Shown in pieces: positions 40,576 to 60,390 of a stretch of 64,000 bases of DNA; position 1 is the first letter of the stretch; every line of letters begins with the position of its first letter. The position numbers were made by a program, and so were the translations under genes. Below the pieces are notes generated by a model. That model did not search any database, was not told the DNA's origin, and saw only the letters and a list, made by a program, of their open reading frames with translations. Source of the stretch: Candidatus Omnitrophota bacterium (lineage in GTDB: Bacteria > Omnitrophota > Gorgyraeia > Duberdicusellales > 4484-171); contig JBAWWL010000002.1 in assembly GCA_037146775.1 (NCBI GenBank), positions 198,554 to 262,553 of the forward strand, read 5' to 3'.

Positions 40576-40685
40576 TATATAGTCGTGAGTATTGAGTACT
40601 GAGTATATAGTGGGGGAAGGACGTATATAGTATAGAGTACATAGTATATCGTAAACAAACTGGGCGGAGGGTAACGGGGAACTCG

Positions 40686-41644: not shown

Positions 41645-42039
41645 TTAATTTTGAAAGTCAATACTTTCAGAAACTGGCATTTAAAAAGGAGCAAATTGAC
41701 CAATTCGTAAGGTCCGCCCTTCATGATCTTAAGATAGCTCAAAATTCGGATATTGTGGATGTTATCTTTAAGTTCAGTTACGATGCGCTCATAAAATTAG
41801 GTATTGCGCTCATTGCTAAGAAAGGGTACAAAATAAGGAGCACAATCGGTCATCATGTTAAGATACTTGAGAAACTGAGCCAAATACTTGGAGAAGAGGA
41901 TGTCCTCGTGCTTGGCAATAAGATGAGACAGGAACGTAATGTTAATCTTTATGATGGCGGTTTCTTTATTGGAGAGAAAGACAGCCGCGAATATTTGGAT
42001 TTTGTAAAGAAAGTTTTTAAGAAAGCAAGCATAGAATAG
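41641..42039 (+). CDS. HEPN-domain protein (toxin partner of the MNT)
   Basis: Rx4H motif (KIRSTIGHH). All-alpha HEPN-sized protein coupled to the MNT gene. Confidence 0.6.
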   Translation: MINFESQYFQKLAFKKEQIDQFVRSALHDLKIAQNSDIVDVIFKFSYDALIKLGIALIAKKGYKIRSTIGHHVKILEKLSQILGEEDVLVLGNKMRQERNVNLYDGGFFIGEKDSREYLDFVKKVFKKASIE

Positions 42040-42060: not shown

Positions 42061-42290
42061 TCTTTAATTTTTCTCCCCTTACTATGTACGACATACTCTG
42101 TACTACATACTTTTTTATGTTTAATTTTTCTCCCTCCCATTATCTTTTCCCCGGTTTCAATTTTTAATATTTAATTTTTCTTTTACTCTATACTCATTAC
42201 TCAATGCTCACGACTACATACTATGTACTACATACTCCATGCTACCCATTATTGCCTAATAACCTACCAACATAATAACCTATCAACCAT
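42061..42290 (+). repeat. G-depleted degenerate short-repeat array (TACTACATAC / CCTA(A/C)CAACAT units)
   Basis: ctatgtacgacatactctgtactacatac...cacgactacatactatgtactacatactccatgctacccattattgcctaataacctaccaacataataacctatcaacc. Related arrays occur at 40981-41015, 45340-45480, 45621-45700 and 51170-51250, and on the opposite strand at 34681-34760 and 40561-40655. Confidence 0.5.
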
Positions 42291-42308
42291 TCCAGCTTTC
42301 ATGTTCTC

Positions 42309-45177: not shown

Positions 45178-45531
45178 AAGAGTGCTTAATATAATAACTA
45201 AAATGGAGTATGCTCCATTATGGTAATACTAATATGGAGGGTGTTTTTACGGGCACTGTGGTCCGGGAAAATAATTTAAGTAGAGGATAGCTGTCCCAAC
45301 CTTTTCTGCATATCAATTCGCTAATCCTTTAACCCTTCCTGTCCTTATATATCCATTTTTAATATTTGATATTTAATATTTAATTTTTCTCCCCCCTTCT
45401 TGCCTAATAACCTATCAACATACCAACCTATCAACCTATATCCTTTTCCCCCCCCTGCTATGTACTACATACGCCATACTACATACGATCTTTCTTTATG
45501 TTTCGCACACGTCATCCGTTATGATGTATGA

Positions 45532-45615
45532 GCCGTTGCCGCTAAACGTAACCGATACGAGCTTCGCCTGCTTCGCCGAGGGAATCGAGGCGAGTAACCG
45601 TAACCGTTCGCCAAG
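45532..45615 (-). repeat. GC-rich ~80-bp element, right (inverted) copy
   Basis: Its reverse complement GCTTGGCGAACGGTTACGGTTACTCGCCTCGATTCCCTCGGCGAAGCAGGCGAAGCTCGTATCGGTTACGTTTAGCGGCAACGG matches 40686-40764. Confidence 0.55.
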
Positions 45616-45919
45616 CTTGCCTACTATGTAATCTATACTCCGTACTACCCATTATTGCCTACTAACCTATCAACATACTCACCTATTAACCATTATAGTT
45701 AATTCATAAAAAAACTATTGACATCTTTTTATATAATGTTAAATTAAAGTAACGGTTTTTTTTAATGAGGCAGCAACTTTTCAAGCCTATAGGCAAAGAA
45801 AAATTGCTTAGCCGAATTAATCCGACGAGGCTGCTAAAATTATGGTAGAGGATTTTAGCGTATGTAAGTCCGAGTCGGGATATGTACAGAAATTATATTA
45901 AGGATAAAAAAGGAGGGGT

Positions 45920-46534
45920 GTGATGATAAAGGGTAATTTAAGGATTGGTTTTGTTTTCTTGTTTGCTTTACTTCTTACCGTAAGCGCTGTGTATGCAGAA
46001 ATTAATCTTTCCACTTCCGGCGGAAAGTTAGGTATTAAAGCCGCAGGTAAAACTACTAATTTAGATAGTAATACCACTGAAACCACCGTTTCCGATTCAT
46101 CAGGAGCAAAAGTTGATATAAATTATAATGCCGCAGAAGGTACTGCTAGTTTAGCTTCTAGCACAGGCACCGCCACCCTCACGTATAATATCGCAAAAAT
46201 ATTTTTAGATAACGGTGAATCTGCTGACGTAGGCCCTACCGGCCCATACGGAAGTTTTTATATTACCAATACTTCAGGTGAGGGAAAGATTGTTGTAATA
46301 TTCCCCGACAACTCGAAAATCACCATGCCTCCAAGTGCGAAAGTTTCTCTCACTTTTCTTGCTGACGACAATTTTAATTTAAAAGTATTAGAGGGAACGG
46401 TTGAATATGTTGACGCGAAAGGTAACGCGCAGATGCTAACGCCAAACTCTCCTGCGATATTCGTAAAGGGTTTCGGCCAGGTTCCTGGCTGGCGTAGCAT
46501 TGAACCTGACAGGTTACATCCTGCAACCCCATAG
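45920..46534 (+). CDS. Secreted Thr/Ser/Gly-rich hypothetical protein
   Basis: Signal peptide. SD AAGGAGGGG upstream. First gene of the glycan locus. Confidence 0.3.
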   Translation: MMIKGNLRIGFVFLFALLLTVSAVYAEINLSTSGGKLGIKAAGKTTNLDSNTTETTVSDSSGAKVDINYNAAEGTASLASSTGTATLTYNIAKIFLDNGESADVGPTGPYGSFYITNTSGEGKIVVIFPDNSKITMPPSAKVSLTFLADDNFNLKVLEGTVEYVDAKGNAQMLTPNSPAIFVKGFGQVPGWRSIEPDRLHPATP

Positions 46535-46600
46535 TTTATTATTTTGTAATTTGAATTTTGTTATTTGTCATTACCAAAGAGGAGGATGAACGTGGAAAAG

Positions 46601-47764
46601 ATGAAGTTAAGTAAATGTTTTATCGTAGTGGCTGTTTTATTATTGCTCGTTGCGCCTTATGCCCGTGCAGAATTTATGGTTAAGCCTGTTAGGGGCACTC
46701 TGCTGGTTTCTGAAGGCATGCTTTATAATAGTAACCCTGGCTATGCTGATGTTGGTGCCCGCGAACATGACTGGGCAAACCAGATGTCTGCAGGGTTATC
46801 TCTTGAAGTTCCTTTTGGCCAGATCCATAAATACACCCTTAATTCAAACACCACATGGATTAAATATTTTACCAATCATAAGTTTAACCAAGTTAATAAT
46901 AATCTTACTCATTCTGTGGATTTTACTTTTAACCGCTGGGCGTTGAATATTCATCAGAATTTTGATGCTAGCTCTGTGCCTGATACTAACGAAATGCCTA
47001 TTGTTTCAAAAGAACTTCTTCGTAAACGTATAAATGCTCCTGGTTTTGCTGTCAGGGGAGATTTAGGTAAACTTAAATTATCCGGCGGTTTTGATTACCA
47101 AGATTATGATACAAACGATGAATATAAAATATTACAGAGAAAAACTTATACACCTTACCTAGAAGGTGCCATGCAGATAACCCCGCTTCTTGATGGTTTT
47201 ATGCGTTATACCTATACTCGCACAATTCGAGCTGAGAATGTGTTAAACAATAGCCATGGTAATGATGTCAAGGTTGGTTTACGTGGAAACTTAACCCCTT
47301 ATCTTACCGGTGAAGTAGGGATTGGCTATGACTGGACTGATTTTAGTCAATCTGGTACTACCGGTGATCAAAGTAATTATCATGGTCTTGTTTACTCAGG
47401 AGGCCTTACTAATCGCCTGTCAAAACACACCACACAAAAGATTTCTTTCTCGCTTGAACCGGAACAAGGTTACAGCGATGCTAACTACTATAAGTGTTGG
47501 ACCACAGAATATATGCTTTCCCATACTTTAAATACCAAAGTTGACGTGAACGCTTCTGTGGGGTATATTCTTAGCAATGAGTCAGGACATGCTTACGATA
47601 TGGAAAAGTCAAATATTTGGCAGTTTGGCACCGGCTTTAATTATCATTTGGCCAAAAATTCAGATTTAGTAGTGGGTTATAATTTTAGTGATAAAAGTTC
47701 TAACAGGCCCGGTAAAAATTACAAACAACACGCTCTCTCTACGAGCGTAAATTACCGATTCTAA
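46601..47764 (+). CDS. Outer-membrane beta-barrel protein
   Basis: Signal peptide, alternating amphipathic beta-strand pattern and a C-terminal ...VNYRF with terminal Phe. Start at ATG 46601 or GTG 46592, after AGGAGG. Confidence 0.5.
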   Translation: MKLSKCFIVVAVLLLLVAPYARAEFMVKPVRGTLLVSEGMLYNSNPGYADVGAREHDWANQMSAGLSLEVPFGQIHKYTLNSNTTWIKYFTNHKFNQVNNNLTHSVDFTFNRWALNIHQNFDASSVPDTNEMPIVSKELLRKRINAPGFAVRGDLGKLKLSGGFDYQDYDTNDEYKILQRKTYTPYLEGAMQITPLLDGFMRYTYTRTIRAENVLNNSHGNDVKVGLRGNLTPYLTGEVGIGYDWTDFSQSGTTGDQSNYHGLVYSGGLTNRLSKHTTQKISFSLEPEQGYSDANYYKCWTTEYMLSHTLNTKVDVNASVGYILSNESGHAYDMEKSNIWQFGTGFNYHLAKNSDLVVGYNFSDKSSNRPGKNYKQHALSTSVNYRF

Positions 47765-47851
47765 ACCCGATTCGGAGTATATGCAGAAAACGCCACTGGA
47801 TATGTTTGTGGCATCTACTTGTCTTCGTTTCGATTAAACTAATAAAAACTA

Positions 47852-48529
47852 ATGCAAGGTTTCTACTACGTGAGAGATTTTTGTTTGAAAATTTTTACCT
47901 ACCTTTTTCTAGGAATAATAGTTCTATATAGTTTAACTTATTTCCTGCCTATTTCTGTTTTTGCCCAAGCTGAGCAAAAACCCAGCCAGGTTATCGCAAA
48001 AGGCGATAAGCTAACCATAAAAGTTTTAGAGCAAGAAGATTTAAACGGAGCATATACAGTTTCTTCCGAGGGTGCAATAGAATTCCCTCTTATCAATGAA
48101 CGCATTCCTGCCGTAGGTCTTACTTATGATGAGCTCGCCCAAAAAATCAAAGAAAAGTTAGAAGAAAAATATTTCTATAAAGCGACAGTCATTGTTTCTG
48201 CTTTTACCGGCGAAGAAATTCGTACTAACAATGCATCTTCTGTTGGAGGAGTTATATATGTATATGGAATGGTGGGTAATCCTGGCGCAATTAATATTCC
48301 GGAAGGAGAAGTGCTGACGGTAAGTAAAGTACTTATTCGTTGTGGCGGATTTAAGGATTTTGCTAATAAAGGAAGAATAAAACTTATTAGAAAATCTCAA
48401 GCAACCGGTAAAGCTCAGATTACTTATCTGAACATGGTAGATATTATAGATAAAGGAAAAGTCGAAAAAGATATTGTAGTACGCGATGGCGATTTAATCG
48501 TAGTTCCTGAGAAATTTTTTAATTTTTAA
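47852..48529 (+). CDS. Polysaccharide export protein (Wza/GumB-like Poly_export + SLBB)
   Basis: IAKGDKLTIKVLEQEDLNGAYTVSSEGAIEFPLI (Poly_export). C-terminal RDGDLIVVPE. Confidence 0.6.
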   Translation: MQGFYYVRDFCLKIFTYLFLGIIVLYSLTYFLPISVFAQAEQKPSQVIAKGDKLTIKVLEQEDLNGAYTVSSEGAIEFPLINERIPAVGLTYDELAQKIKEKLEEKYFYKATVIVSAFTGEEIRTNNASSVGGVIYVYGMVGNPGAINIPEGEVLTVSKVLIRCGGFKDFANKGRIKLIRKSQATGKAQITYLNMVDIIDKGKVEKDIVVRDGDLIVVPEKFFNF

Positions 48530-48551
48530 TTATATTTAATAAAAATTTAAT

Positions 48552-50825
48552 ATGCATTTGCCAGAAGATAATATACTTATAAGTAAGATTGATTTTAAAC
48601 AATATTTAGAAATACTTCTTAACCGCAAAGACGTATTTATTATTTCTGTATTAGTGTGTTTGATTGTGGGGACAGGTTTTGTTTTGGCAACGAAGCCAAC
48701 CTATCGAGCATCGGCGCAACTGCAGGTTAATACCGGCGTTAACATGCCCATTGCTTCTTCTGTTTATCGAGATAGGCCCGAAGATTACTACTATCTTTCT
48801 AACCAAATAGAGCTTTTACAGGGCAAAACCCTGAAAGATAATGTGTTGAGCGCTCTTTCGTCGTGGGTAGATAAGGTTCCAAAGAAATTTTTGGAACCAA
48901 AGCTTAAAGTTGAAACCGCACGTGGTAATGTTATCTCTATATTGGCAGATAGCCCTTATAAGGAATACGCCTTAGCTTATGTTGAAACGTTGATGAAGGA
49001 ATATATGACCTTTAAGACAGGGCAAAAGGAAAAAAGTTCAAGCTTTGCTCTTTCAAATCTTACAAAGCAGGCCAGCCAGTTAAATGATAAGATTACCGGT
49101 ATGCAGAAAGAAATTCTTAAATTTAAAGAACAGCATAATGATATTTTACTTGATGATTATGGTAACTTTTCAAACAGTTATCTCATGACTTTGACTCGGA
49201 AACAATCCGAGATAAGGTCAGAGATGATTTTAATTGAAAAGAAGATCCAGGCGTTAGAAGGGAGCGAAGATCCTTCTTTCTGGATTTCTGTCATTGATGA
49301 TATACAGCGTGGTACCGTGACGCCGACTATTTCAAAGGAGGCTCAGCCGGAAGCAACGCTTAGTTCCATGCCGAGTACCAACTCTAAATTTTACGGTCAA
49401 GGTAAAACCGGAACCCCCAGTCAGTCGGTTAATAGCATTCAAGTTGAACAACTTCCTTTTGTTTTTATTCTTGAAAAAGAACAAAGTAAATATTGGCAAG
49501 ACTTAAAAGTTCGTTACGGAAAATTAAAATCCGAATATGCTCGGATAGCGAAGCTATATAAGCCCGAGCATCCTTACTTAAAACAGGTATCCGATGACTT
49601 AAGTACAGTAAAGCGAGACATGGCATCAGAAGTTGGCTCATTACTTGAGAAATTTAAGGCAAAATATGAAGGGCTAAAACTCGAAGAGCAAGCCGTAGAT
49701 GAAGAGTTAAAACGTTGGCAATCCACATCCCTAACTTCGTCTTCAGTGGTAAACCAATTTTCGGCGCTTAAAGATGAAGAACTCAGGTTGAAGAAATTAT
49801 ATCAGGCGCTTGTGGACAGGATAGAAGAAATATCAGTAACCTCTGATTTTGGTCTTGAAACTGTCCAGATAGTTCAGAACCCGCGGGTTGATCGGCTTCC
49901 TTTTAAAAAACTATTTAATCTCTTAATGGTTATTGTTGTAAGTTTCATGGGTGGATGCGGAGTCGTTTTTGCGGTCGAGTATTTAGATGATTCAATAAAA
50001 TCTTCCGATGATTTAAGAAAATATACAGGATTGGCTGCCCTCGGTATGGTTAATGCTATAGATTGGAATCAGGGTGATGTTGCAGGACACAAAATTACAT
50101 TTTTAAAGGATAGTCATGTTGTGGAGGCGTACCGCTCTATACGTACTAATATTCTTTTAGCCAAGCCCGAAAGCGTTCTTAAAACTATCTTAATTACGAG
50201 TGCGGTTCCATCAGAGGGTAAAACTACCTCTTCGGTGAATACTGCTATAGTGTTAGCGCAAAGTGGGCTTAAAGTACTTTTGATTGACGCGGATATGCGG
50301 CGTCCTACTATCCATAAGGTTTTTAGTCTCAAAGATAAAAATGGATTATCCGCTGTTCTTGCAGAAACTGAGTCATTTGATAGTTGTGTGCAAAAAACTG
50401 ATGTGGAGAATCTGGATTTGTTGCCGGCAGGCCATATTGTGAGTGATCCTCCTAAACTACTTCACGCGAGCAAAATAAAAGAATTATTCCAAGCTCTTTG
50501 TAAGCGCTACGATAGAATAATTATTGACAGTGCCCCTGTGCTAACCGTTACCGATAGTGTTATCTTGAGCGATCTAGTTGATGGAATAATATTTGTTGTT
50601 TATGGTGGTAAAACCTCAAGGCTTGCTCTTATTAGGGCAAAAGAAGTATTGTTAACAAATTCTACTAAAATATTTGGCACAATTATCAATAATCTATCGA
50701 TTAAGAAAATGTCTGGTTATTACTATTCGTATTATGGGTATAAATATAAATACCACTATGGTTACGGTAAAGAGAATTCTTCGAGCAAAAAAGAAGATAA
50801 AAAGACCGAAGAGGTAATATTGTAA
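48552..50825 (+). CDS. Polysaccharide co-polymerase / BY-kinase (Wzc/GumC-like)
   Basis: N-terminal Wzz-type domain with two TM segments, a coiled-coil periplasmic region, a C-terminal P-loop (SEGKTTSSVNTAIVLAQSGLKVLLIDADMRRP) and a C-terminal Tyr cluster YYYSYYGYKYKYHYGYG. Confidence 0.75.
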   Translation: MHLPEDNILISKIDFKQYLEILLNRKDVFIISVLVCLIVGTGFVLATKPTYRASAQLQVNTGVNMPIASSVYRDRPEDYYYLSNQIELLQGKTLKDNVLSALSSWVDKVPKKFLEPKLKVETARGNVISILADSPYKEYALAYVETLMKEYMTFKTGQKEKSSSFALSNLTKQASQLNDKITGMQKEILKFKEQHNDILLDDYGNFSNSYLMTLTRKQSEIRSEMILIEKKIQALEGSEDPSFWISVIDDIQRGTVTPTISKEAQPEATLSSMPSTNSKFYGQGKTGTPSQSVNSIQVEQLPFVFILEKEQSKYWQDLKVRYGKLKSEYARIAKLYKPEHPYLKQVSDDLSTVKRDMASEVGSLLEKFKAKYEGLKLEEQAVDEELKRWQSTSLTSSSVVNQFSALKDEELRLKKLYQALVDRIEEISVTSDFGLETVQIVQNPRVDRLPFKKLFNLLMVIVVSFMGGCGVVFAVEYLDDSIKSSDDLRKYTGLAALGMVNAIDWNQGDVAGHKITFLKDSHVVEAYRSIRTNILLAKPESVLKTILITSAVPSEGKTTSSVNTAIVLAQSGLKVLLIDADMRRPTIHKVFSLKDKNGLSAVLAETESFDSCVQKTDVENLDLLPAGHIVSDPPKLLHASKIKELFQALCKRYDRIIIDSAPVLTVTDSVILSDLVDGIIFVVYGGKTSRLALIRAKEVLLTNSTKIFGTIINNLSIKKMSGYYYSYYGYKYKYHYGYGKENSSSKKEDKKTEEVIL

Positions 50826-50830
50826 ACTGT

Positions 50831-53533
50831 GTGGTGTGCAGAGAAGATTTCAATCAATCCTCACGTAAATCCAATTCTTTCATATTTAAAATCACCTTAT
50901 TCAGTGCTATTCTTCTAATTCCACTTGTTGCCTCTACTGAATATCTTTGGGCAATCAGCTTCATCATTCTTTTAGGAAGTATTACCTTATTGGTGATTGC
51001 CTTGGATATTTTTCATTCCAAGCGCATTGAATTTATTCCAACCTTCATTCTTCCCCTTATTTTATTTTTACTCATCTATTTTCTCATCACCCTAATATCT
51101 CTCCCAGCCTTTATTTTGCAATTTCTCTCCCTCCGTGCCTTCGCTATCTATAGCAACTATTTGCCCCCCGCTTCGCCTACCAACCTACCAACATCTTTGT
51201 ATACCAACATACCAACATATCAACCTACTAACCTATTTACCCTTTATCCTATTAGCCTATACCCACACAATACGCTCGTAGGCTTAGGTGTAGCACTATC
51301 TTTTTTCGCCATATTTCTATTCCTCATTAATAATCTCGACAGTTTTCGTTTAAGGATAAAGATAGTAAAAACAATTATTTTTTCTGCTACTCTCGTAACT
51401 TGCTTAGGAATTATTAATATGCTAATTCAGAATAAAAAATTGTTCTGGTTTATAGATATAATATCCGGTACACCCACAGGCCCTTTTATTAATACCATTC
51501 ACTTCGCCTCATTCGTGGCGCTCTATATACCTTTGGTATTGGGCATATGGGTTGGTAAAATTGATTTTCATATAAAAGATTGTAAATTCGGCAAAGCTAA
51601 GTCAATGCTCTATAAGTTCATAATATTTATAAAAAATTCAATTATCTATTTACTCCCGGCTTTGTTGATGATATTCGCTTTATTTAAGTCGCTTTCCCGC
51701 GGAGCAATGTTAGCTTTTTGTACTTCAATGTTTATCTTTGTATTGCTTATAGCTTTTAAATCAAAAACTCGTCTACGCGCTATCATTCTTCTAGTTTTTA
51801 CTTTTTCGTTTTTAGCTTTGACTTTCTATGTCGACTCGTTTAATATCAAATCCAAAATATTGTCATTAACCAATAGTCAAGGCGAAAACGCCATATTCAA
51901 CCAAGATATAACAGAAAGAATTTCTACACTTAAACACCCGTTGCAAACCGATAGTGCAAAGACGCGTTTTAGTGTTTGGCGTGATACTCTTAAGATATTT
52001 TCTGATTTTCCGTTATTTGGCACAGGCCTAAATACTTTTAGCATTATTTTTCCTAAATATAAGACTATCTATGGTTCTGGAAAAATGTTTTTTACTCACT
52101 CCGAGAATGATTATGTTGAAACTCTATCTGAAGTTGGTTTATTAGGTATAATACCAATATTATTAATCTTGATAATCTTTTTAAGAAACACATTCATAAA
52201 TTTTAAATTAGAAACCGACTCTCTAAAAATTGGTATTATTTCTGGTGGCATCGCTTCCGTTTTTGCGCTTCTTTTTTGCGCATTAACCGATTTTTCTTTC
52301 CATATCCCTTCTGTTAGTTTTATTTTTATGCTTATCTGTTTCGTAATTTGGCCAAAGACAAAAAAAAGAAAAATTATCTCATTTAATGATATGGTGGGCA
52401 GGAAGAAACCTATAGCTATTGTGGTATTGCTATTTTTAGTGGCAATATTTATGTTTATATTTTCTGTTCAACTATTATTAGGCGAAATATATTTCTATAA
52501 ATTTAATTATTCTCAAGATAGCTTTCAGGTTAAACAAAACTATATTAAAAAAGCTGTCTTTTTTAATAATGGTAATGCGGAATATAGGTACTCTTTAGGA
52601 AAAATTTATTTTGATCAAGCGACTTTGCTAAGGAATAAAGATGAAGCTGCAGCTTTAGAGCTTATCAAACAGGCGAAAACAGAATTTGAAAAAGCGATAA
52701 TTTTGCAACCTACTCATTGGAAGTACCATTTTTTTAACGGCTCAGCTGAACTTATTCTTGTTTCTTCTCGGGTCAAGGGCTATTCTTTTAACAATGCTGA
52801 ATCTTCCTTTGAAAAAGCCTTAAGTCTAAATCCTACAGAATACGATATATACGGTTATTTAGCTAATTACTATTTGCCTTTTGATTCAGAAAAAGCATTT
52901 AAGTATTATCGTAAGCTTATCATGCTTAGGCCATATTATTTAGGTAGTATATTAGATACTATTTGGAAAATAAACAATAATCCTGACTTTATCCGAGAAG
53001 CCATTCCCAGTACTCCAAGGTTAATAGCGCAATACGCTGATTTTTTAAAATCTAAAGGTATCAATTCTGCTAAATTCTATAAAGAATCTGCTTTTCTCGC
53101 GTCTCCTTCCGCAAAAAATAAAGAAGACCAACTTGCTATCGCCCAAAAGCTCGCTCTTTCCAATGGTTTCAAGGACGCTTTTGATTATTTCCTTGATTCT
53201 TTACAGTCAAGTAGCTTTTTCCAAAAGAATAAAGAACAATTTATCATCCCGACATATTCTAGTGAACAACTTATAAAAGAAGAGGAGAATGTCAGCACAT
53301 TACAAAAAACACTTTCTCCCGACGATCCTCAGCTAACATATAAATTAGCCCTTTTCCATTATCAGCTAAAGGACTATAATAAAGCTTCTGAATACTTTAT
53401 GAAATTACTAAAAATCTCTCCCAACAACCCCTTTCTGCGCTTCCACCTCGCTATGGCATTGTATAAGAGGGGAGAGCATAAAGAGGCGTACGAGGAGCTC
53501 AGGCAGGCTATTACTTTGATTAATGACAGATGA
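50831..53533 (+). CDS. O-antigen ligase/polymerase-like (Wzy_C) polytopic membrane protein with a C-terminal TPR domain; start uncertain
   Basis: Many TM helices then a TPR-like C-terminus (YFMKLLKISPNNPFLRFHLAMALYKRGEHKEAYEEL). The first ~140 codons include a repeat-derived low-complexity stretch (PTNLPTSLYTNIPTYQPTNL) encoded by the CCAACMTA array at 51170-51250. Confidence 0.55.
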   Translation: MVCREDFNQSSRKSNSFIFKITLFSAILLIPLVASTEYLWAISFIILLGSITLLVIALDIFHSKRIEFIPTFILPLILFLLIYFLITLISLPAFILQFLSLRAFAIYSNYLPPASPTNLPTSLYTNIPTYQPTNLFTLYPISLYPHNTLVGLGVALSFFAIFLFLINNLDSFRLRIKIVKTIIFSATLVTCLGIINMLIQNKKLFWFIDIISGTPTGPFINTIHFASFVALYIPLVLGIWVGKIDFHIKDCKFGKAKSMLYKFIIFIKNSIIYLLPALLMIFALFKSLSRGAMLAFCTSMFIFVLLIAFKSKTRLRAIILLVFTFSFLALTFYVDSFNIKSKILSLTNSQGENAIFNQDITERISTLKHPLQTDSAKTRFSVWRDTLKIFSDFPLFGTGLNTFSIIFPKYKTIYGSGKMFFTHSENDYVETLSEVGLLGIIPILLILIIFLRNTFINFKLETDSLKIGIISGGIASVFALLFCALTDFSFHIPSVSFIFMLICFVIWPKTKKRKIISFNDMVGRKKPIAIVVLLFLVAIFMFIFSVQLLLGEIYFYKFNYSQDSFQVKQNYIKKAVFFNNGNAEYRYSLGKIYFDQATLLRNKDEAAALELIKQAKTEFEKAIILQPTHWKYHFFNGSAELILVSSRVKGYSFNNAESSFEKALSLNPTEYDIYGYLANYYLPFDSEKAFKYYRKLIMLRPYYLGSILDTIWKINNNPDFIREAIPSTPRLIAQYADFLKSKGINSAKFYKESAFLASPSAKNKEDQLAIAQKLALSNGFKDAFDYFLDSLQSSSFFQKNKEQFIIPTYSSEQLIKEEENVSTLQKTLSPDDPQLTYKLALFHYQLKDYNKASEYFMKLLKISPNNPFLRFHLAMALYKRGEHKEAYEELRQAITLINDR

Positions 53534-53542
53534 CAAGATATA

Positions 53543-53566
53543 CAATGACAAATTACAAAGCTCAAA
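53543..53566 (+). repeat. Left arm of a ~24-bp inverted repeat bracketing 4HB gene 1 (partner at ~54016-54039)
   Basis: AATGACAAATTACAAAGCTCAAAT versus the reverse complement of downstream ATTTGAATTTTGTACTTTGTCATT (21/24). Additional ATGACAA copies upstream and TTTGTCAT copies downstream. Confidence 0.5.
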
Positions 53567-53615
53567 TGACAAATAATATCAGACTAACAAAAGTCACTTA
53601 ATAACAAAGGTCAAA

Positions 53616-53987
53616 ATGGAAATGACAAAAGGTATAGTTGGAGATAATAAATTTGACCTTGAAGGTAGAACGTTGATTTTTGCTAAAAATTGCATTGATT
53701 TGTGTAAAATGTTGATGTGCGACACTATAAACAGGGAATTAATAAGCCAGCTTGTAAGGGCTTCTGGCTCAGTAGGTGCAAACTATCGAGAAGCGAACGA
53801 AGCTCTAACAAAAAAAGATTTTTTCCACCGCATTGGAATATGCAGAAAAGAGGCTAAGGAAAGCAAATACTGGTTAGAATTATTGTCACATACTAATCCA
53901 AAGCTTTCTAATAAAATTGAGGTATTAGCTGACGAAGCATTGCAATTAGCGCGTATTTTCTCAGCTATAGTAAAAAAACGCGTCTAG
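53616..53987 (+). CDS. Four-helix-bundle protein (PF05635/TIGR02436 family: 23S rRNA IVS protein / DGR Avd-like)
   Basis: QLVRASGSVGANYREA..KKDF...CRKEAKESKYWLELL matches the family consensus. It is paralogous to 55638-56003 and 57310-57711. Confidence 0.65.
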   Translation: MEMTKGIVGDNKFDLEGRTLIFAKNCIDLCKMLMCDTINRELISQLVRASGSVGANYREANEALTKKDFFHRIGICRKEAKESKYWLELLSHTNPKLSNKIEVLADEALQLARIFSAIVKKRV

Positions 53988-54127
53988 TTTTTCCTTTCGT
54001 ACTTTTTTGTTATTTGAATTTTGTACTTTGTCATTAACCAATATTTGACATTTGAATTTTGTAATTTGTTCTTAGTTCATTTGTCCTTTGTGCTTTGTCA
54101 TTTGTCATTTTAACCGTAGGTTAACCC

Positions 54128-55519
54128 ATGTTCATAAGTAGTCGTAAATCGTTTCTCACCGGCAAGTCCAAGCTTATCTTCATCGATATTCTGGCTCTGT
54201 GTCTTTCTGTTTATTTAGCAACTATTATTCGAATTGGCTGGGAAGACGCAAATCGTTATATCAGCTTAAAGCTCTTGCCTCTTGGTTTCGGTATTTTTAT
54301 CTTTCTTACCTTATTTTATCTTCATGGTTTATATGAACTGCATTTTTTTGATACTTACTTAAAGCTTATCTCACGAGTAATATCTGCAGTTCTCCTTGGT
54401 ATTTTAATCTATACTTTTATTTTTTATGCTGTATTTACGTTTGCTATAGGTAGAGGTGTATTTACCTTAATGGCATTGCTCATCGCTACATTTGTTTTTT
54501 TCCCCAGAATATTTTATATCTCGGTTGCCAAAAGAAATATTTTAGGTGAAAAAGTAATTATAGTAGGTACTGGTGAAGCAGCTTTTGACATCATCAATAT
54601 TATAGATAAGCACCCCACTTGTCCTTATAGAATAATCGGTGTTATTAGTGAAAAAGAAAAAGAAACTATCTCTAGCTTTGGGCACCATCAACTTATGGGT
54701 TCCATTGATGATATTGATCAAATCGCCGAGCAAAATAAAATTGACACAATCATAATTACAACTCTAGAGCCAAGGCGTTCCAAAATATTAAAACATTTAA
54801 GAGTATGTCGTTATCATGGTGTGCGTATTATCGATAGTGTTTCTTTATATGAAGAGATTGAGGGTAGAGTTCCTCTGCAATATATAGATGATGAATGGCT
54901 ATTTTCTTCCAACATGAATTATTCTAACTTTCACATCAAAAAATTAAAAAGGTTAATGGATATTATTGGTTCTTCGATTGGTATTATTCTCGTTTTCCCT
55001 TTATGCCTTGTCGTGAGTATTCTTATCAAGTTTGATTCAATCGGGCCTATTTTCTATCGACAAAAAAGATTAAGTCGAGATGGCAGGATTTTTCGCTTGC
55101 TCAAATTTCGCTCAATGATTCATCGTGCCGAGCGAGGATTGGGCGGTCCGGTGTGGTCACAAACAAATGATAACCGTATCACTCGAGTGGGTAAATGGAT
55201 GCGTAAAACTAGAATTGATGAAATTCCCCAGCTTATTAATGTGTTTTTAGGCCACATGAGTCTAGTGGGTCCTCGACCTGAACGCCCCGCTTTTATTAAA
55301 GAACTATCTGAAAAAATTCCCTTTTACTTAGAAAGGCTTTACGTTCAACCTGGCTTAACCGGCTGGGCGCAAATTAACTATCCTTATACCGCTACAATAG
55401 AGGAGTCAAGAATAAAACTGCAATACGATTTATACTACATCAAACACGTCTCCTTTTTGTTAGACTGCCTTATTCTATTGAAAACCATCAAAATCGTCCT
55501 TCTCAGCCGCGGCCGTTAG
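54128..55519 (+). CDS. Undecaprenyl-phosphate sugar phosphotransferase (WbaP/WcaJ-type priming glycosyltransferase)
   Basis: Five TM helices, then a C-terminal bacterial sugar transferase domain ([25 protein letters not shown]...[21 protein letters not shown]). Confidence 0.8.
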
Positions 55520-55602
55520 CTATTTACCCATATAAACCCTGTCTTATTTCCGACGTGGATTGTATTGACGCATTGTGATATGTTATGATATAATTAAAAC
55601 TT

Positions 55603-55616
55603 AAAAGTAAAAAGTC
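55603..55616 (+). repeat. Left arm of a 14-bp inverted repeat bracketing 4HB gene 2 (partner at ~56022-56036), with further TTTTAACTTTT / TTTACCTTTTTCGTTTTAAC tandem copies downstream to 56180
   Basis: TTAAAAGTAAAAAG upstream. CTTTTTACTTTTAA downstream. Confidence 0.45.
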
Positions 55617-55637
55617 AAAACTAAAAATATAAGTTAA

Positions 55638-56003
55638 ATGGAGAATAAAGTTTACGATTTAAAGAAACGTACGTATGTGTTTGCTTTAGATGTTATTAGG
55701 TTTCTTGAAAGTTTACCAAAGGATTATATTTCTATTGTTATCGGGAAACAGTTGTTACGCTCAGCAACTTCTGTGGGAGCGAATGTGGTCGAGGCGCAGG
55801 CTTCTAGCTCCAAGAAGGATTTTATAAATTTCTATAATTATTCATTAAAATCCGCAAACGAAACAATATTCTGGCTAAGTTTACTTAAGGATGCAAATAG
55901 AGATCCTAATCAGAAAATACCTCTTCTTCTAAGCGAAACACAGCAGCTCTCAAAAATTCTTGCTGCAAGCATTCTGACAATGAAAGGAAAGAGAAAGCCT
56001 TGA
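55638..56003 (+). CDS. Four-helix-bundle protein (PF05635 family), paralogue 2
   Basis: QLLRSATSVGANVVEAQ..SKKDF..NETIFWLSLL. Confidence 0.65.
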   Translation: MENKVYDLKKRTYVFALDVIRFLESLPKDYISIVIGKQLLRSATSVGANVVEAQASSSKKDFINFYNYSLKSANETIFWLSLLKDANRDPNQKIPLLLSETQQLSKILAASILTMKGKRKP

Positions 56004-56182
56004 ATTTAAATTTTCGCTCTAACTTTTTACTTTTAACTTATTTTATTCAGTGGATTACTTTTTCGCGTTTTGATTTTTAACTTTTACCTTTATTTCGTTT
56101 TACCTTTTTCGTTTTAACTTTTAACGTTTCTGTTCAAAGTATTCACTTTTACCTTTTTCGTTTTAACTTTTAACTTAATAAT

Positions 56183-56419
56183 ATGACCGTCAACGATAAT
56201 GAAATCTACACCTTAGAAGAAGCTCAGTCTATATTAAAGATCAGTCGCTCCACCCTATTGCGTCTTATCAAGAAAGGTCTAATTAAAACCGCAAAAGTCG
56301 GCCGTCAATATCGAATCTGGGGTAATGAAATTCTGCACATCATGTCCCCATCTTTAGAAGGCAAAGTCCGTAAAGAGTATAGGAAAAGTAGGGAATGGTT
56401 GTATAAAGGCATAAGTTGA
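56183..56419 (+). CDS. Excisionase-family / MerR-like helix-turn-helix DNA-binding protein
   Basis: YTLEEAQSILKISRSTLLRLIKKGLIKTAKVGRQYRI matches the excisionase-family DNA-binding domain pattern. Confidence 0.5.
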   Translation: MTVNDNEIYTLEEAQSILKISRSTLLRLIKKGLIKTAKVGRQYRIWGNEILHIMSPSLEGKVRKEYRKSREWLYKGIS

Positions 56420-56452
56420 TAGGCCTTATGTTTTTAGGCATAGGAGGTTAAT

Positions 56453-57286
56453 TTGGACAACACTTCGCAAAAAACTATTGTTATCGAAGCAGGCCGGACG
56501 AGGGGATTATATTGGAGAGATCTTTGGCATTATCGTGCATTATTTTATTTCTTATCTTGGCGGGACATTCTTGTCAGGTATAAACAAACAGTTATTGGTA
56601 TTGCTTGGAGCGTTATCAGGCCATTGCTTACCATGGTTGTCTTCACTTTTGTATTCAGCAAATTAGCGAAATTTCCTTCTGAAGGCGTTCCATATCCTAT
56701 CCTGGTCTTTACCGCTATGCTTCCTTGGCAATTTTTTGCGAATGCTCTTAGCGAAAGCAGTAATTCCCTTATTACTAACGCTAATATGCTTACCAAAGTT
56801 TATTTTCCGCGGCTCATCGTTCCCGTAAGCACCATTATCGTTTGTCTAGTTGATTTTATTATATCATTGTTACTTCTTGTTGTGCTTATGGTGATATATA
56901 AGTTTACCCCTTCTTTAAATATTTTAATACTGCCACTATTTCTTCTTCTGTTGCTGATTTTTTCTCTTGGTCTAGGTCTTTATATATCAGCATTAAATGT
57001 AAAGTATAGAGATTTCCGTTACGTCGTTCCTTTTATCGTCCAGTTCGGACTTTATATTTCACCCGTTGGTTTTAGCTCAAGCGTTGTTCCTGATAAGTGG
57101 AAATTATTTTATTATTTGAATCCAATGGTAGGAATAATTGATAGTTTCAGATGGGCAATCCTTGGAGAGAGTGTTCATATCTATTGGCCGGGATTTATCC
57201 TTTCTATTATCTTATCTGTAGTTATTTTCATTTTTGGTTTACTGTATTTTCGTAAAACCGAACGCACGTTTGCTGATATTATATAA
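56453..57286 (+). CDS. ABC-2 type polysaccharide export permease (Wzm/KpsM-like)
   Basis: GLYWRDLWHYRALFYFLSWRDILVRYKQTVIGIAWSVIRPLL and six TM helices. Confidence 0.7.
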   Translation: MDNTSQKTIVIEAGRTRGLYWRDLWHYRALFYFLSWRDILVRYKQTVIGIAWSVIRPLLTMVVFTFVFSKLAKFPSEGVPYPILVFTAMLPWQFFANALSESSNSLITNANMLTKVYFPRLIVPVSTIIVCLVDFIISLLLLVVLMVIYKFTPSLNILILPLFLLLLLIFSLGLGLYISALNVKYRDFRYVVPFIVQFGLYISPVGFSSSVVPDKWKLFYYLNPMVGIIDSFRWAILGESVHIYWPGFILSIILSVVIFIFGLLYFRKTERTFADII

Positions 57287-57300
57287 TGAATTCTTTGTTA

Positions 57301-57326
57301 TAGTTACCAATGTCCAATGAGCTAAT
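57301..57326 (+). repeat. Left arm of a ~25-bp inverted repeat bracketing 4HB gene 3 (partner at ~57757-57781)
   Basis: CAATGTCCAATGAGCTAATGACGAAT versus the reverse complement of downstream ATTCGTCATTCGGATTTGGACATTG, which is CAATGTCCAAATCCGAATGACGAAT. Confidence 0.55.
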
Positions 57327-57711
57327 GACGAATAAAATATCAATGATTCAAGCCAACAATAGTAAATACGATTTACGTGAGCGAACAGCAAAGTTTGGCG
57401 AAAATGTCATTAATTTTGCTAAAAGAATTCCAGAGTCTACTATAAACCGGCCCTTGATAAGTCAGTTAGTAAGAGCGGCTACAAGCGTGGGCGCAAATTA
57501 CTGCGAAGCAGATGATGCTACCACTAAGAAGGATTTCCTATACAGAATTGCTGTGTGCAGAAAGGAGTCTAAAGAGTCCAAGCATTGGTTGCGGATGGTA
57601 ACGATGGCTATTCCGGCGTTGAAGGATGAAGCGAATTTGTTATCTAATGAAGCGCAGGAATTGAATCTTATTTTTTCTGCGATTATCAATAAAGGAAAAG
57701 CTAAATCTTGA
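57310..57711 (+). CDS. Four-helix-bundle protein (PF05635 family), paralogue 3
   Basis: QLVRAATSVGANYCEA..KKDF..CRKESKESKHWLRMV. Confidence 0.65.
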   Translation: MSNELMTNKISMIQANNSKYDLRERTAKFGENVINFAKRIPESTINRPLISQLVRAATSVGANYCEADDATTKKDFLYRIAVCRKESKESKHWLRMVTMAIPALKDEANLLSNEAQELNLIFSAIINKGKAKS

Positions 57712-57810
57712 TAGGCTAATTTGTCATTTTGACTTGTTCATTGGGATTTCAGTATAGTTCATTCGTCATTCGGATTTGGACATTGTGATTTTAGTTTAGA
57801 CTTTAAGTTT

Positions 57811-59070
57811 ATGAGTACGGTCATCAAAGTCGAAAATCTAGGCAAAAGATACGTTATAAGTCACCAAGAGCAACAGCGCTATCGGACTCTTCGTGATGTT
57901 GTTACTAATAAGTTTAAATCATTCGGCAAGAAGACGGCTTCGACCAAAGAGGAAATATGGGCGCTCAAAAATGTTTCGTTTGAAGTAAAGCAAGGAGAAA
58001 GAGTTGGCATTATCGGAAGGAACGGCGCGGGTAAATCCACTCTGTTAAAGCTATTAAGCAGAATAACCGAACCAACGAAAGGTAAGATTGGGCTGTGCGG
58101 CCGTGTGGGGAGCCTTCTTGAGGTTGGCACCGGTTTTCATCCTGAGTTGACCGGGAGGGAGAATATATATCTTAATGGCGCCATCCTAGGTATGTCAAAA
58201 TCGGACATACGCAAGAAATTTGATGATATTGTTGCTTTCGCGGAAATTGATAAATTTCTTGATACGCCAGTTAAGCGGTATTCGTCAGGAATGTATGTCC
58301 GGCTTGCCTTTGCCGTTGCTGCCCACTTGGAACCAGAGATTCTTTTGGTGGATGAAGTTCTTGCCGTTGGTGACGTCTCATTCCAGAAGAAATGTTTAGG
58401 AAAAATGGAGGATGTGTCTCAAGAGGGCCGGACCCTCCTATTTGTAAGCCACGATCTGGTGGCGGTCAGAAAACTTTGTAAAAGAACTATCCTTTTATGT
58501 GATGGAAAAATAGAGAAAGATGGTTTTACCGACAGCGCTATTGATGCATATTTGAATTATTCCAGGAACGCGACAGAAGGATTGTATTGCTGGAATGAGC
58601 CTGCGGGTCGTCAGAAAGTTTGGCCTGTGCAATTAGAGATATTAGATGAATCGATGAATCGAATATCCAATATTCCTTTCGATAGTGCTGTAACCATAGC
58701 GCTAAGAATTAAAGTGTATGAAGCGTTTAGCTTCCAGGTGAGCCTTCGCATCACTAACAATCTTGCGATTCCCATCTTTTCTACTGAGCCAAGTCAAGAG
58801 CTTATGTTTTATAATCGCGGTTATTATAATTTCTCTCTTAAGTTGCCGTTCGCTTTATTGTCGCCAGGTTATTATCGTGTTGCGTTGGGTATCCATGATC
58901 CAGGAACAGAGGTATTTTTTTTCGAAGAGCAGATATTGTCGTGGCAAGTAATCGAGACGGGTACAAATATGGCAAAATACAAGAAATATCATGAAACAGG
59001 AGTAATTATTGTTGATATTCCCTGGGAAATAATTTATAACAAACAGGATGGCAAAATTGAACCGTGTTAA
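57811..59070 (+). CDS. Polysaccharide ABC exporter ATP-binding protein (Wzt-like) with a C-terminal glycan-binding domain, copy 1
   Basis: Walker A GRNGAGKST, signature YSSGMYVRLAFA, Walker B LLVDEVLAVGD, plus a ~200-aa beta-rich C-terminal extension (Wzt_C-like). Confidence 0.8.
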   Translation: MSTVIKVENLGKRYVISHQEQQRYRTLRDVVTNKFKSFGKKTASTKEEIWALKNVSFEVKQGERVGIIGRNGAGKSTLLKLLSRITEPTKGKIGLCGRVGSLLEVGTGFHPELTGRENIYLNGAILGMSKSDIRKKFDDIVAFAEIDKFLDTPVKRYSSGMYVRLAFAVAAHLEPEILLVDEVLAVGDVSFQKKCLGKMEDVSQEGRTLLFVSHDLVAVRKLCKRTILLCDGKIEKDGFTDSAIDAYLNYSRNATEGLYCWNEPAGRQKVWPVQLEILDESMNRISNIPFDSAVTIALRIKVYEAFSFQVSLRITNNLAIPIFSTEPSQELMFYNRGYYNFSLKLPFALLSPGYYRVALGIHDPGTEVFFFEEQILSWQVIETGTNMAKYKKYHETGVIIVDIPWEIIYNKQDGKIEPC

Positions 59071-59145
59071 GTATATCTGCATTCCTCTGTGTTCCAATGT
59101 ATCTGTGTTTAATAAATCTGCGCCAATCTGTGTTTTAAAAAAGGT

Positions 59146-60390
59146 ATGTCAGTAGTCATCAAAGTCGAAAATCTAGGCAAAAGATACGTTATAAGTCACC
59201 AAGAGCAACAGCGCTATCGGACTCTTCGTGATGTTGTTACTAATAAGTTTAAATCATTCGGCAAGAAGACGGCTTCGACCAAAGAGGAAATATGGGCGCT
59301 CAAAAATGTTTCGTTTGAAGTAAAGCAAGGAGAAAGAGTTGGCATTATCGGAAGGAACGGCGCGGGTAAATCCACTCTGTTAAAGCTATTAAGCAGAATA
59401 ACCGAACCAACGAAAGGTAAGATTGGGCTGTGCGGCCGTGTGGGGAGCCTTCTTGAGGTTGGCACCGGTTTTCATCCTGAGTTGACCGGGAGGGAGAATA
59501 TATATCTTAATGGCGCCATCCTAGGTATGTCAAAATCGGACATACGCAAGAAATTTGATGATATTGTTGCTTTCGCGGAAATTGATAAATTTCTTGATAC
59601 GCCAGTTAAGCGGTATTCGTCAGGAATGTATGTCCGGCTTGCCTTTGCCGTTGCTGCCCACTTGGAACCAGAGATTCTTTTGGTGGATGAAGTTCTTGCC
59701 GTTGGTGACGTCTCATTCCAGAAGAAATGTTTAGGAAAAATGGAGGATGTGGCGAGGCAGGGAATGACCGTTATTTTCGTAAGCCATAATATGGGAGCAA
59801 TTGAGAATTTATGCCAACGTACTATATTGATTGACGCCGGAGCGGTGAAAAGGGACGATGATACATCGACAACGATTGCGTTATATTTAGAAAATATTTC
59901 TACGAATATTTCAACTGTGTCGCTGTTGGAGCGTAAAGATCGCTCAGGATCAGGAATCGTTAAATTCTCTGATTTTCGAATAGAAGATTTGCTGGGTAAT
60001 TCGTTGAATGTTGTTCATAGTGGGCAAGATATTGTCTTTATTTTTGATTTTGCCTCGACAAATTCCGCAAACTCGCTTAACGTAGATGTCGGTTTTGGTG
60101 TTTTTTCTCCCATGGGTCAACTTCTTTTTGTTCTTTATAGTAGCTATACTGGAGAAGAATTTAAAGAGCTTGCCATACAAGGGAGTTTTTGTTGCAGAGT
60201 TAATAAATTACCATTGATACCTGGACGGTATAGAGTAGGGGCACGAATTGTGGTGGGGCAGGATGAGTCTGATTGGCCGGCCGACGGTATCGGTTATTTC
60301 GATGTTGAGGCTGGTGATTTTTACGGTACAGGGAGTATGGGGTTTGGCCAGTGTCCGATATTAGTTGACGGTTCGTGGTTTTTGAAATAA
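59146..60390 (+). CDS. Wzt-like ABC ATP-binding protein, copy 2 (5' 610 bp identical to copy 1, different C-terminal domain)
   Basis: Nucleotides 59152-59762 are identical to 57817-58427. Divergence begins after ...KKCLGKMEDV. Distinct C-terminal beta-rich domain. Confidence 0.8.
   Translation: MSVVIKVENLGKRYVISHQEQQRYRTLRDVVTNKFKSFGKKTASTKEEIWALKNVSFEVKQGERVGIIGRNGAGKSTLLKLLSRITEPTKGKIGLCGRVGSLLEVGTGFHPELTGRENIYLNGAILGMSKSDIRKKFDDIVAFAEIDKFLDTPVKRYSSGMYVRLAFAVAAHLEPEILLVDEVLAVGDVSFQKKCLGKMEDVARQGMTVIFVSHNMGAIENLCQRTILIDAGAVKRDDDTSTTIALYLENISTNISTVSLLERKDRSGSGIVKFSDFRIEDLLGNSLNVVHSGQDIVFIFDFASTNSANSLNVDVGFGVFSPMGQLLFVLYSSYTGEEFKELAIQGSFCCRVNKLPLIPGRYRVGARIVVGQDESDWPADGIGYFDVEAGDFYGTGSMGFGQCPILVDGSWFLK

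Follow-up and report, generated by a model that had tools for sequence, protein, structure and literature searches.

The window analysed here is a stretch of 64,000 nucleotides (nt) from a metagenome-assembled genome of Candidatus Omnitrophota. At 55595-56176 it carries an element, hereafter called cassette 2, in which a gene for a four-helix-bundle protein lies between two arrays of 7-nt units (heptamers) that are complementary to each other; all of its features are read on the plus strand. Its left boundary is a strong, sigma-70-like promoter at 55565-55594 (TTGACG, an 18-nt spacer with TG, and TATAAT), which is native to the operon, lies outside the cassette and is, with 11/12 matches, the best promoter-like site in 53300-58000. 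The left arm follows directly (55595-55637, A at 27 of 43 bases) and consists of the A-rich heptamers AAAACTT, AAAAGTA, AAAAGTC, AAAACTA and AAAATAT, which reach the ATG of the gene; Tandem Repeats Finder reported a period of 7 with 4.6 copies at 55596-55627. The cargo gene (55638-56003) encodes a protein of 121 amino acids that was assigned to the S23p/Avd-like family (PF05635/TIGR02436) by profile match and structure model. Behind it a tract of 179 nt (56004-56182; T 56%, A 21%, C 16%, G 7%) ends at the ATG of a helix-turn-helix (HTH) gene of the HTH_17/excisionase family (56183-56419, 78 amino acids; PF12728, E=1e-11), which, as the operon's native first gene, forms the right boundary, again outside the cassette. 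No Shine-Dalgarno sequence is visible before the four-helix-bundle gene or before the HTH gene, no intrinsic terminator was predicted in 53300-58000, and the search against Rfam gave no match in the window at gathering thresholds or at E <= 1.

The original prediction, made from the letters alone, had described inverted words on both sides of the four-helix-bundle gene and a T-rich, G-poor, strand-asymmetric tract of about 180 bp directly before an excisionase-like gene. Both descriptions were confirmed, and the framing of the locus as a cassette turned out to be the key point. The word TTAAAAGTAAAAAG is found from 55601 onwards, its exact reverse complement CTTTTTACTTTTAA from 56023 and AAAACTTAAAAGTAAAAAGTCAAAAC from 55596. 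Between the flanks, exact inverted matches reach at most 15 nt, a length attained in only 10 of 2000 composition-preserving shuffles, and the inverted pair extends to arms of 40 nt (55598-55637 and 56000-56039) that are 75% complementary and abut the start and stop codons exactly.

The T-rich tract had also been presented as an array of longer repeated units, which is true only in part. The 28-mer TTTTACCTTTTTCGTTTTAACTTTTAAC occurs exactly twice, at 56098 and 56147, with starts 49 nt apart, whereas direct repeats in 500 shuffles did not exceed 15 nt; the two copies do not form a tandem 28-mer array, and the real unit is a degenerate heptamer. Self-identity within the tract peaks at lags 7, 14, 21 and 28 (0.53, 0.52, 0.48 and 0.46) against 0.24-0.32 at lags 3-4 and 10-11. 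The tandem-repeat check that had been proposed returned period 7 (14.3 copies at 56075-56176), with imperfect copies of only 62% matches. At a higher level the tract is built of four 35-nt modules of five heptamers each, starting at 56010, 56053, 56091 and 56140. Copy 1 of the right arm (56004-56044) contains the exact 15-nt complement of the left arm and was recognised from the inverted pair and from the RNAduplex prediction. Copy 2 (56053-56087) is degenerate, with 66% identity to copy 3 (56091-56125), which served as the reference of the direct-repeat family; copy 4 (56140-56174) is 91% identical to copy 3 and ends 8 nt 5' of the HTH start codon. The two 28-mers are therefore parts of copies 3 and 4, that is, of two of the four reiterated right arms. 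In an alignment by eye, 26 of 28 positions of copy 3 are equal to those of the single right arm of a relative (L002).

An assembly artefact, which would have undone the original description, is unlikely, since a 12-kb contig of the Logan assembly of run SRR12676968 equals window positions 45638-57633 with 0 mismatches, although its reads are possibly shared with the window's own assembly. Phase variation had been suggested as well, and in that case the tract would be a simple-sequence repeat whose length switches the expression of the HTH-wzm-wzt genes. Its position between the promoter and the first gene of a surface-polysaccharide operon would suit such a switch, as would its length: counted at 182 nt, it is the second longest of 138 downstream tracts in the family (99th percentile, median 56 nt), the left arm being ordinary, and in the related element of Coxiella the number of heptamers varies among strains. 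Against this stand the imperfection of the units, with no run of identical ones, the identity of the two assemblies and the recurrence of the same architecture beside unrelated genes in about 150 loci, whatever the neighbouring gene. We regard a length switch as very improbable.

The cargo protein was identified with high scores (PF05635, 75.4 bits against a cut-off of 33.8; TIGR02436, 91.1 against 24). Its sequence is 100% identical to an NCBI protein carrying the name Candidatus Omnitrophota. The protein matches the Protein Data Bank entry 2RLD with E=1e-16 (4e-28 with a profile), and also Xcc0516 (2GSC). The AlphaFold model shows four helices at a pLDDT of 92.3, with TM-scores of 0.79-0.89 to 2RLD, about 0.80 to 2GSC and 0.73-0.80 to bAvd (4DWL), a protein of diversity-generating retroelements (DGRs). 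The motif R-x3-S-x3-N-x2-E, a conserved motif of the family (PMC3936711), is present as R41, S45, N49 and E52, all invariant in the family alignment. The ratio of non-synonymous to synonymous substitutions (dN/dS) against the closest relatives is 0.04-0.10, with synonymous sites near saturation; the protein is therefore maintained by selection. The family is large: at E <= 0.001 the PF05635 profile picked out 18,218 of 1.84 billion cluster representatives. Phage carriers were limited to two weak hits. We know of no function for PF05635 proteins outside DGRs.

The comparison with a cassette-free relative (contig L162, Wzm 77% identical) established how cassette 2 relates to its operon. L162 has the order Bac_transf ... 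HTH_17, wzm, wzt and no four-helix-bundle genes, and its HTH protein shows about 90% amino-acid identity to that of the window (by eye, over the shared region). Its promoter, TTGACA-18-TACAAT, aligns with TTGACG-18-TATAAT of the window; the -10 box is followed by a leader of 64 nt in L162 and by 582 nt of arm, open reading frame (ORF) and arms in the window, and the similarity returns at TAAWAATATG, from where it runs on into the HTH coding sequence. Likewise, the gap between wzm and wzt is 6 nt in L162 and 6-12 nt across L162 and a second relative, L163, as compared with 524 nt in the window, where it holds cassette 3. As the same promoter, HTH gene, wzm and wzt occur together without cassettes, cassettes 2 and 3 are insertions, added to the non-coding gaps of the operon, and the promoter and the HTH gene are native. 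On this comparison the HTH gene adjoining the tract does not belong to the cassette, given that the cassette-free operon keeps it. Cassette 2 begins after the native -10 box and precedes the operon's first gene, and it would therefore be transcribed as the operon leader. The heptanucleotide GTGGATT, found at 55555 and 56050, was considered as a target-site duplication; this was dropped, since its two copies enclose the native promoter.

The window contains three four-helix-bundle genes within 4.3 kb (53616-53987, 55638-56003 and 57310-57711), the proteins of which are about 37% identical, and in all three cassettes the gene has a heptamer-type array on one side and the reverse complement of this array on the other. 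Cassette 1 (53521-54110, plus strand) has an AATGACA-type left arm of about 93 nt (53521-53613), the ORF at 53616-53987 and a TGTCATT-type right arm of 113 nt (53998-54110), and its predicted arm duplex of -59.3 kcal/mol (RNAduplex) is far stronger than that of cassette 2. Cassette 3 (57286-57806, plus strand), situated between wzm and wzt, has its arms at 57286-57334 and 57760-57806 around the ORF at 57310-57711; the left arm extends over the ORF's first 25 nt, and the arm duplex amounts to -32.2 kcal/mol. The surface-polysaccharide export operon holds three such insertions, one of them in the leader.

The same architecture was found throughout the family. We fetched 80 metagenome loci and 80 loci from GTDB genomes encoding relatives, the latter from Omnitrophota, Planctomycetota, Patescibacteria, Zixibacteria, Atribacterota, Chloroflexota, Verrucomicrobiota, Ignavibacteria, Chitinophagaceae and genomes labelled Gammaproteobacteria. 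In about 150 homologous loci from at least 10 phyla, purine-rich heptamers lie upstream of the gene and their complement downstream. By eye, nearly all relatives show CAAAAGT-type units upstream and ACTTTTG-type units downstream, and the arrays span from the stop codon of the neighbour to the ribosome-binding site of the next gene. In 73 flank pairs, peaks of self-identity fall at lags 7, 14 and 21; A makes up 44% of the upstream flank and T 44% of the downstream flank. Period-7 tracts occupy 67% of the gaps adjoining these genes and 16% of the other gaps of the same loci (odds ratio 10.8, p=1e-25), and this signal is specific to lag 7, with almost nothing at lags 5, 6, 8 and 9. The arms fill gaps of about 41 nt upstream and 57 nt downstream; the arrays are 30-31 nt long in the median and most often have 4-5 units, within a range of 2-13. 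Polarity within this subfamily is strict (purine-rich upstream in 146/152, pyrimidine-rich downstream in 140/152), and the neighbours are mostly co-directional, both upstream (115/123, 93%) and downstream (107/125, 86%). More divergent members encoded in these loci follow this design too, with other units and, in some cases, with reversed polarity. The G-poor tract of cassette 2, in which C exceeds G, had suggested a Rho-loading (rut) site; this was rejected as a general account, as the downstream flanks of the family contain 14% C and 16% G.

Several insertion sites are shared among loci whose arms differ, the neighbours having been named by eye from translated ends: cysD-cysN (L008-L011, L015, L017, L023 and L024), nuoF-nuoG (L143, L146, L155 and L160) and the position upstream of a lolC/E-like gene (L030, L031, L091, L092, L101 and L106). 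Such sites, occupied across related genomes by cassettes with differing arms, suggest long vertical retention of the cassettes together with turnover of the heptamer units.

The arms might instead act as terminal inverted repeats at the level of DNA, either left behind by the movement or recombination of a selfish element or required for it, with no role in RNA. Insertion relative to the cassette-free operon is what such an element would produce, and one protein subfamily (45-64% identity) is spread over at least 10 phyla, with three cassettes within 4.3 kb here. Moreover, some loci (L010, L011 and L028) have arm pairs with no ORF between them, which, like those of a Nostoc plasmid described below, resemble derivatives of the miniature inverted-repeat transposable element kind, and a transposon origin of the related rRNA elements has long been proposed in the literature. 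The cassettes, however, encode no transposase and differ from one another in arm sequence, so that a shared trans-acting enzyme is hard to picture; near-identical copies and a clear target-site duplication were not found; and the cysD-cysN, nuoF-nuoG and lolC/E-like sites are held across related taxa with the form of the arms kept. The strict polarity relative to the ORF, combined with the co-directional neighbours, points to a constraint at the level of the transcript. We therefore consider a purely DNA-level role unlikely.

Complementarity of the arms was assessed by comparing own-locus with cross-locus pairs, since alignments of heptamer repeats are ambiguous in register. The median alignment score in the 73 pairs was 32 for arms of the same locus and 21 across loci (p=6e-9). 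In 153 pairs, the median RNAduplex energy was -31.0 kcal/mol for own arms, -25.6 kcal/mol across loci (p=1e-14) and -23.1 kcal/mol for shuffles, and the sense strand was more stable than the antisense strand in 101 of the 153 (p=2e-7). The complementarity is thus specific to the locus. In cassette 2 the left arm (55600-55635) pairs best with copy 1 of the right arm (56004-56037) at -15.3 kcal/mol; copies 3 and 4 give -14.2 and -14.0 kcal/mol, and all four right modules can form a duplex of about -14 to -15 kcal/mol with the one left arm.

These values also bear on the idea that the two arrays are independent translation leaders, an A-rich one for initiation free of a Shine-Dalgarno sequence and a U-rich one for the next gene, and that they are complementary only incidentally. 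The missing Shine-Dalgarno sequences at both genes and the arrays that abut start codons would fit, and heptamers at start codons have been proposed to act in translation in Beggiatoaceae (PMC4679880) and Nostoc (10.1101/2022.06.06.494920). Own arms, however, are significantly more complementary than arms of the same composition from other loci, and the cyanobacterial arms are perfect reverse complements of balanced composition (AATTCGC/GCGAATT), which composition alone does not predict. Separate leaders accordingly seem quite improbable to us.

The closest known counterparts are the intervening sequences (IVSs) of rRNA. The IVS in helix 45 of the 23S rRNA of Coxiella burnetii, the one relative that has been studied by experiment, contains an S23p ORF with three GACAGAT heptamers and one degenerate heptamer directly before the ATG; its terminal inverted repeats form a stem of about 28 bp, which RNase III cuts in vitro, and the ends found by rapid amplification of cDNA ends lie in the stem's central part (PMC4990558). 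The same work reports 2 or 3 heptamers depending on the strain, so that change of length by slippage is real for this kind of element, and describes the IVS as a horizontally acquired selfish element for which a transposon origin has long been proposed. Like the S23p-type IVSs of Coxiella and Leptospira, cassette 2 has a PF05635 ORF, terminal inverted repeats enclosing it (weak ones, at -15.3 kcal/mol) and tandem heptamers upstream. In contrast to them, it is not located in a helix of 23S or 16S rRNA, there being no rRNA in the window; it lies between a promoter and a protein-coding gene, in an mRNA leader, where processing is presumed, whereas excision of the known IVSs by RNase III has been demonstrated. 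The ORF of Coxiella is apparently decaying and untranslated, while that of cassette 2 is under strong purifying selection, and the AU-rich, degenerate arms with a fourfold right arm are also unlike the Coxiella IVS.

A second counterpart is Avd of the DGRs, which shares the four-helix-bundle fold with the cargo protein and assembles into a pentameric basic barrel. In the DGR ribonucleoprotein Avd binds an RNA stem-loop, and in the DGR RNA the sequences on the two sides of the template repeat form a long-range duplex (10.1101/2023.10.23.563531). Sequence similarity between bAvd and the cargo protein was not detected by profile search. Membership of a DGR was rejected, as no reverse transcriptase is encoded in 46.5-64 kb of the window, where all ORFs are polysaccharide-pathway or four-helix-bundle genes; unlike the Avd gene of a DGR, the cargo gene stands alone.

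Repetitive extragenic palindromic (REP) sequences and bacterial interspersed mosaic elements (BIMEs) are short inverted-repeat elements that lie in intergenic gaps of co-directional genes, are co-transcribed with them and can form RNA stems. They share with the cassettes the inverted repeats in such gaps, the transcription and the capacity for a stem, and differ from them in having no ORF, in not being built of heptamers and in being mobilised by RAYT transposases.

Based on these results, our favoured reading is that the T-rich tract is the four-times reiterated right arm of an IVS-type cassette that lives in mRNA and whose arms pair in the transcript; we give it a probability of about 50%. 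Four heptamers make 28 bp, which is both the typical arm length measured here and the length of the Coxiella stem, and the cassettes of the window are therefore read as IVS-type. The A-rich 5' arm would pair with one of the U-rich 3' arms, giving an AU-rich stem, some 15-40 bp long, whose closure falls at the start and stop codons and which leaves the ORF looped out. Such a stem would be a substrate of RNase III, as in the homologous rRNA elements, and the cut would free the cassette RNA from the host message; formation of the stem would also mask the initiation region of the ORF. Arms made of heptamers would still pair after slips by whole units, and gain and loss of units by slippage could have led to the reiteration of the right arm. 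Together, stem and excision may allow the element to reside in an operon or an rRNA while doing limited harm. The sequences themselves establish the anatomy of the cassette, its conservation across the family, the locus-specific complementarity of the arms, the insertion into an operon known without cassettes and the purifying selection on the protein. We infer the pairing in RNA, the cutting by RNase III and any effect on the operon from the architecture and from these parallels.

Several results weigh against this reading. The pairing in cassette 2 is weak, the best duplex being the -15.3 kcal/mol given above, and its 90-nt flanks reach -25.8 kcal/mol, which is no better than the cross-locus median. 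Folding of the transcript, another check proposed at the outset, gave no signal of stability (z = 0.16 against shuffles for the whole 596 nt). A-rich and U-rich strands are partly complementary from composition alone, and the higher stability of the sense strand over the antisense strand could share this cause. Mismatches compatible with G-U pairs outnumbered the A-C kind by 216 to 153 (raw p = 0.001); the observed ratio of 1.41 compares with 1.21 expected from composition, and the excess is therefore no proof of selection at the RNA level. Finally, cleavage of cassettes borne by mRNA is assumed by analogy, and any role of the three extra right arms is hypothetical.

Cassettes of this design also occur in cultured organisms. 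A tblastn search against plasmids returned annotated "four helix bundle protein" genes mainly in cyanobacteria. On pNPUN02 of N. punctiforme PCC 73102, (AATTCGC)x4 and (GCGAATT)x4 enclose the gene (59135-59506); the Planktothrix gene, located between drmD and pglX, has arrays of CCCCAAT/CGTAAAT together with their complements; that of Bernardetia comes after (TTAGTGA)x17; and the four-helix-bundle gene of Chlorohelix likewise has heptamer arrays. Further carriers of such cassettes are Bacteroides thetaiotaomicron (BT_0352) and Chitinophagaceae LGM1 (at nuoF-nuoG). The arrays of the Nostoc homologues are perfect, whereas the units of cassette 2 are degenerate. We analysed the whole plasmid pNFSY06 of N. 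flagelliforme (239 kb), on which 5/5 annotated four-helix-bundle genes stand between perfect, inverted arrays of some 4 heptamers, the unit differing from gene to gene (AGCAGGG, TTCAAAA/TTTTGAA, AATTCGC, AATTCGT and GCAGATT). Of the plasmid's 34 heptamer tracts, 12 are no more than 200 nt away from these genes, in a zone amounting to 1.6% of the plasmid (p=1e-13); among the 22 solo tracts, at least 11 have a unit that also flanks one of the genes. Some inverted pairs on the plasmid, 100-170 nt apart, enclose no ORF (L174 14496-14700, L175 5748-5969 and 24392-24533; on plasmid coordinates 114496/114656, 155748/155920 and 174392/174499); they use AATTCAA/TTTTGAA and AATTCGC/GCGAATT, units that flank four-helix-bundle genes elsewhere on pNFSY06.

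Some cassettes were observed inside defence operons, of the DISARM/BREX, CRISPR adaptation and restriction-modification-like kinds: between drmD and pglX in Planktothrix (L168), between cas2 and cas1 in Anabaena cylindrica (L169) and between a helicase and a methylase gene in Chlorohelix (L171). Stray 23S_rRNA_IVP genes inside cas loci are already known (PMC3936711; PMC10910872), and the published associations may reflect insertions rather than a functional partnership.

The STRR heptamer repeats of cyanobacteria were reportedly described by Mazel and co-workers in 1990, and cyanobacterial heptamer repeats have been unexplained for decades. These repeats, together with those of Nostoc 7120 and Beggiatoaceae, are like the cassette arms in being tandem intergenic 7-nt units that often touch start codons; they have been described as direct repeats upstream of assorted genes, in contrast to the cassette arms, which are inverted around a gene, and the searchable papers connect them neither with four-helix-bundle genes nor with inverted pairing. 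In Nostoc 7120, an unidentified protein has been postulated to bind the TTTTGAA/TTCAAAA repeats (10.1101/2022.06.06.494920), and the TAACTGA repeats just 5' of start codons in Beggiatoaceae have been proposed as translational elements (PMC4679880). In most of the bacterial genomes surveyed, heptamers are reported to rank first in abundance among long simple repeats, for which there is no agreed explanation (summarised in PMC4679880).

These repeats bring in a further explanation of the arms, namely that the heptamer arrays are putative binding sites of the encoded protein, through which it would regulate itself and, at solo arrays, act in trans, pairing of the arms being secondary. The family forms positively charged pentameric rings, with five chains in 2RLD and a homopentamer for Xcc0516 (PMC4990558), and the binding of an RNA stem-loop by Avd (10.1101/2023.10.23.563531) provides a precedent. 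The private unit of each gene on pNFSY06 and its reuse in solo tracts would fit, as would a solo T-rich array in the window (46531-46572), which matches the left arm of cassette 1 at 31/36 positions, and the TTTTGAA/TTCAAAA-binding protein postulated from Nostoc 7120. In closer relatives, moreover, the arms are 64-93% identical as compared with 21-66% at 4-fold degenerate sites. Unrelated arms of such low complexity are, however, already 60% identical; joint inheritance of gene and arms explains the matching of units without recognition; arrays that peak at 4-5 units and span 2-13 do not point to a fixed stoichiometry of five; and a second array in reverse complement is left unexplained. Recognition of the arrays by the protein is therefore a doubtful alternative to pairing of the arms. 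A fixed number of five heptamers matching the pentamer had been considered separately, both arms of cassette 2 having 5 units, and was rejected given the family mode of 4-5 with a wide spread and the approximately 4 units of Nostoc.

In its widest form, this idea would make the S23p/Avd-like four-helix-bundle proteins the missing trans-acting partners of bacterial heptamer repeats, each paralogue recognising its own unit, which we put forward tentatively and think improbable. Equally speculative is the corresponding picture in which the gene is encoded between two arrays and the solo arrays represent a post-transcriptional regulon or mobilisable derivatives without an ORF. If true, the IVSs of 23S rRNA, the cyanobacterial STRR and the excess of heptamers in bacteria would be facets of one widespread system.

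S23p ORFs in rRNA IVSs with inverted-repeat stems, and the heptamers of the Coxiella element, are already known. In the full text of about 8 million searchable papers, apart from the Coxiella note, no link of these proteins to heptamer repeats was found, although subscription papers and database notes may differ. Likewise absent from the searched papers were the inverted heptamer arrays bracketing these genes across phyla, the IVS-like insertion in mRNA leaders and operon gaps and the tie to the cyanobacterial heptamer repeats. The regularity of the cassettes offers a testable model for both puzzles, the function of these proteins and the heptamer repeats: an RNA stem processed by RNase III, a cognate pair of protein and repeat, or both. 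It also explains why such genes are found inside cas, DISARM/BREX and polysaccharide operons without belonging to them, which matters for gene discovery based on guilt by association, and the arrays could serve as a signature for annotating such insertions.

Other repeats were observed in the window. The solo T-rich array at 46531-46572 lies between two genes with no adjoining four-helix-bundle gene, and its agreement with the left arm of cassette 1 (31/36) refers to its reverse complement. Inverted heptamer arms with AGTATAT / ACTACAT units (40560-40611 / 42185-42236, also 40993-41022; 52 nt, 87% complementary) enclose a nucleotidyltransferase gene (PF01909) and a weak HEPN-like ORF (41066-42039) and no four-helix-bundle gene; they may be the same kind of arms carrying other cargo. 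An inner arm pair in this region encloses 330 nt without an ORF. Kinship of the 132-amino-acid ORF at 41641 to the four-helix-bundle family was rejected (hhalign probability 0.8%). A GC-rich inverted repeat of 89 nt (40682-40770 / 45527-45615, 84% complementary) brackets 4.7 kb with the nucleotidyltransferase/HEPN-like pair and a P-type ATPase, and composite repeat modules of 42068-42291 recur at 45352-45694.

Downstream of cassette 3, the tandem wzt genes (57811-58420 / 59146-59755) are almost identical over their first approximately 610 nt (100% over offsets 100-600) and unrelated afterwards, so that the two share the ATPase domain and have different Wzt_C carbohydrate-binding ends. The gap before the second wzt contains the motif ATCTGTG/ATCTGCG at an irregular spacing of 10-15 nt (59070-59145), which is also present in the leader and in the HTH-wzm spacer of L162 (3930-4000 and 3660-3715). 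Finally, repeats CCTACCAAC/ATACCAAC with a period of 8 lie at 51176-51236 inside an ORF of 900 amino acids (Wzy_C-TPR), where they encode PTNLPTSLYTNIPTYQPTNL. Intergenic arrays of similar appearance lie at 42257-42291, 45409-45439 and 45660-45690, and the repeats in this ORF may represent a repeat insertion within coding sequence.

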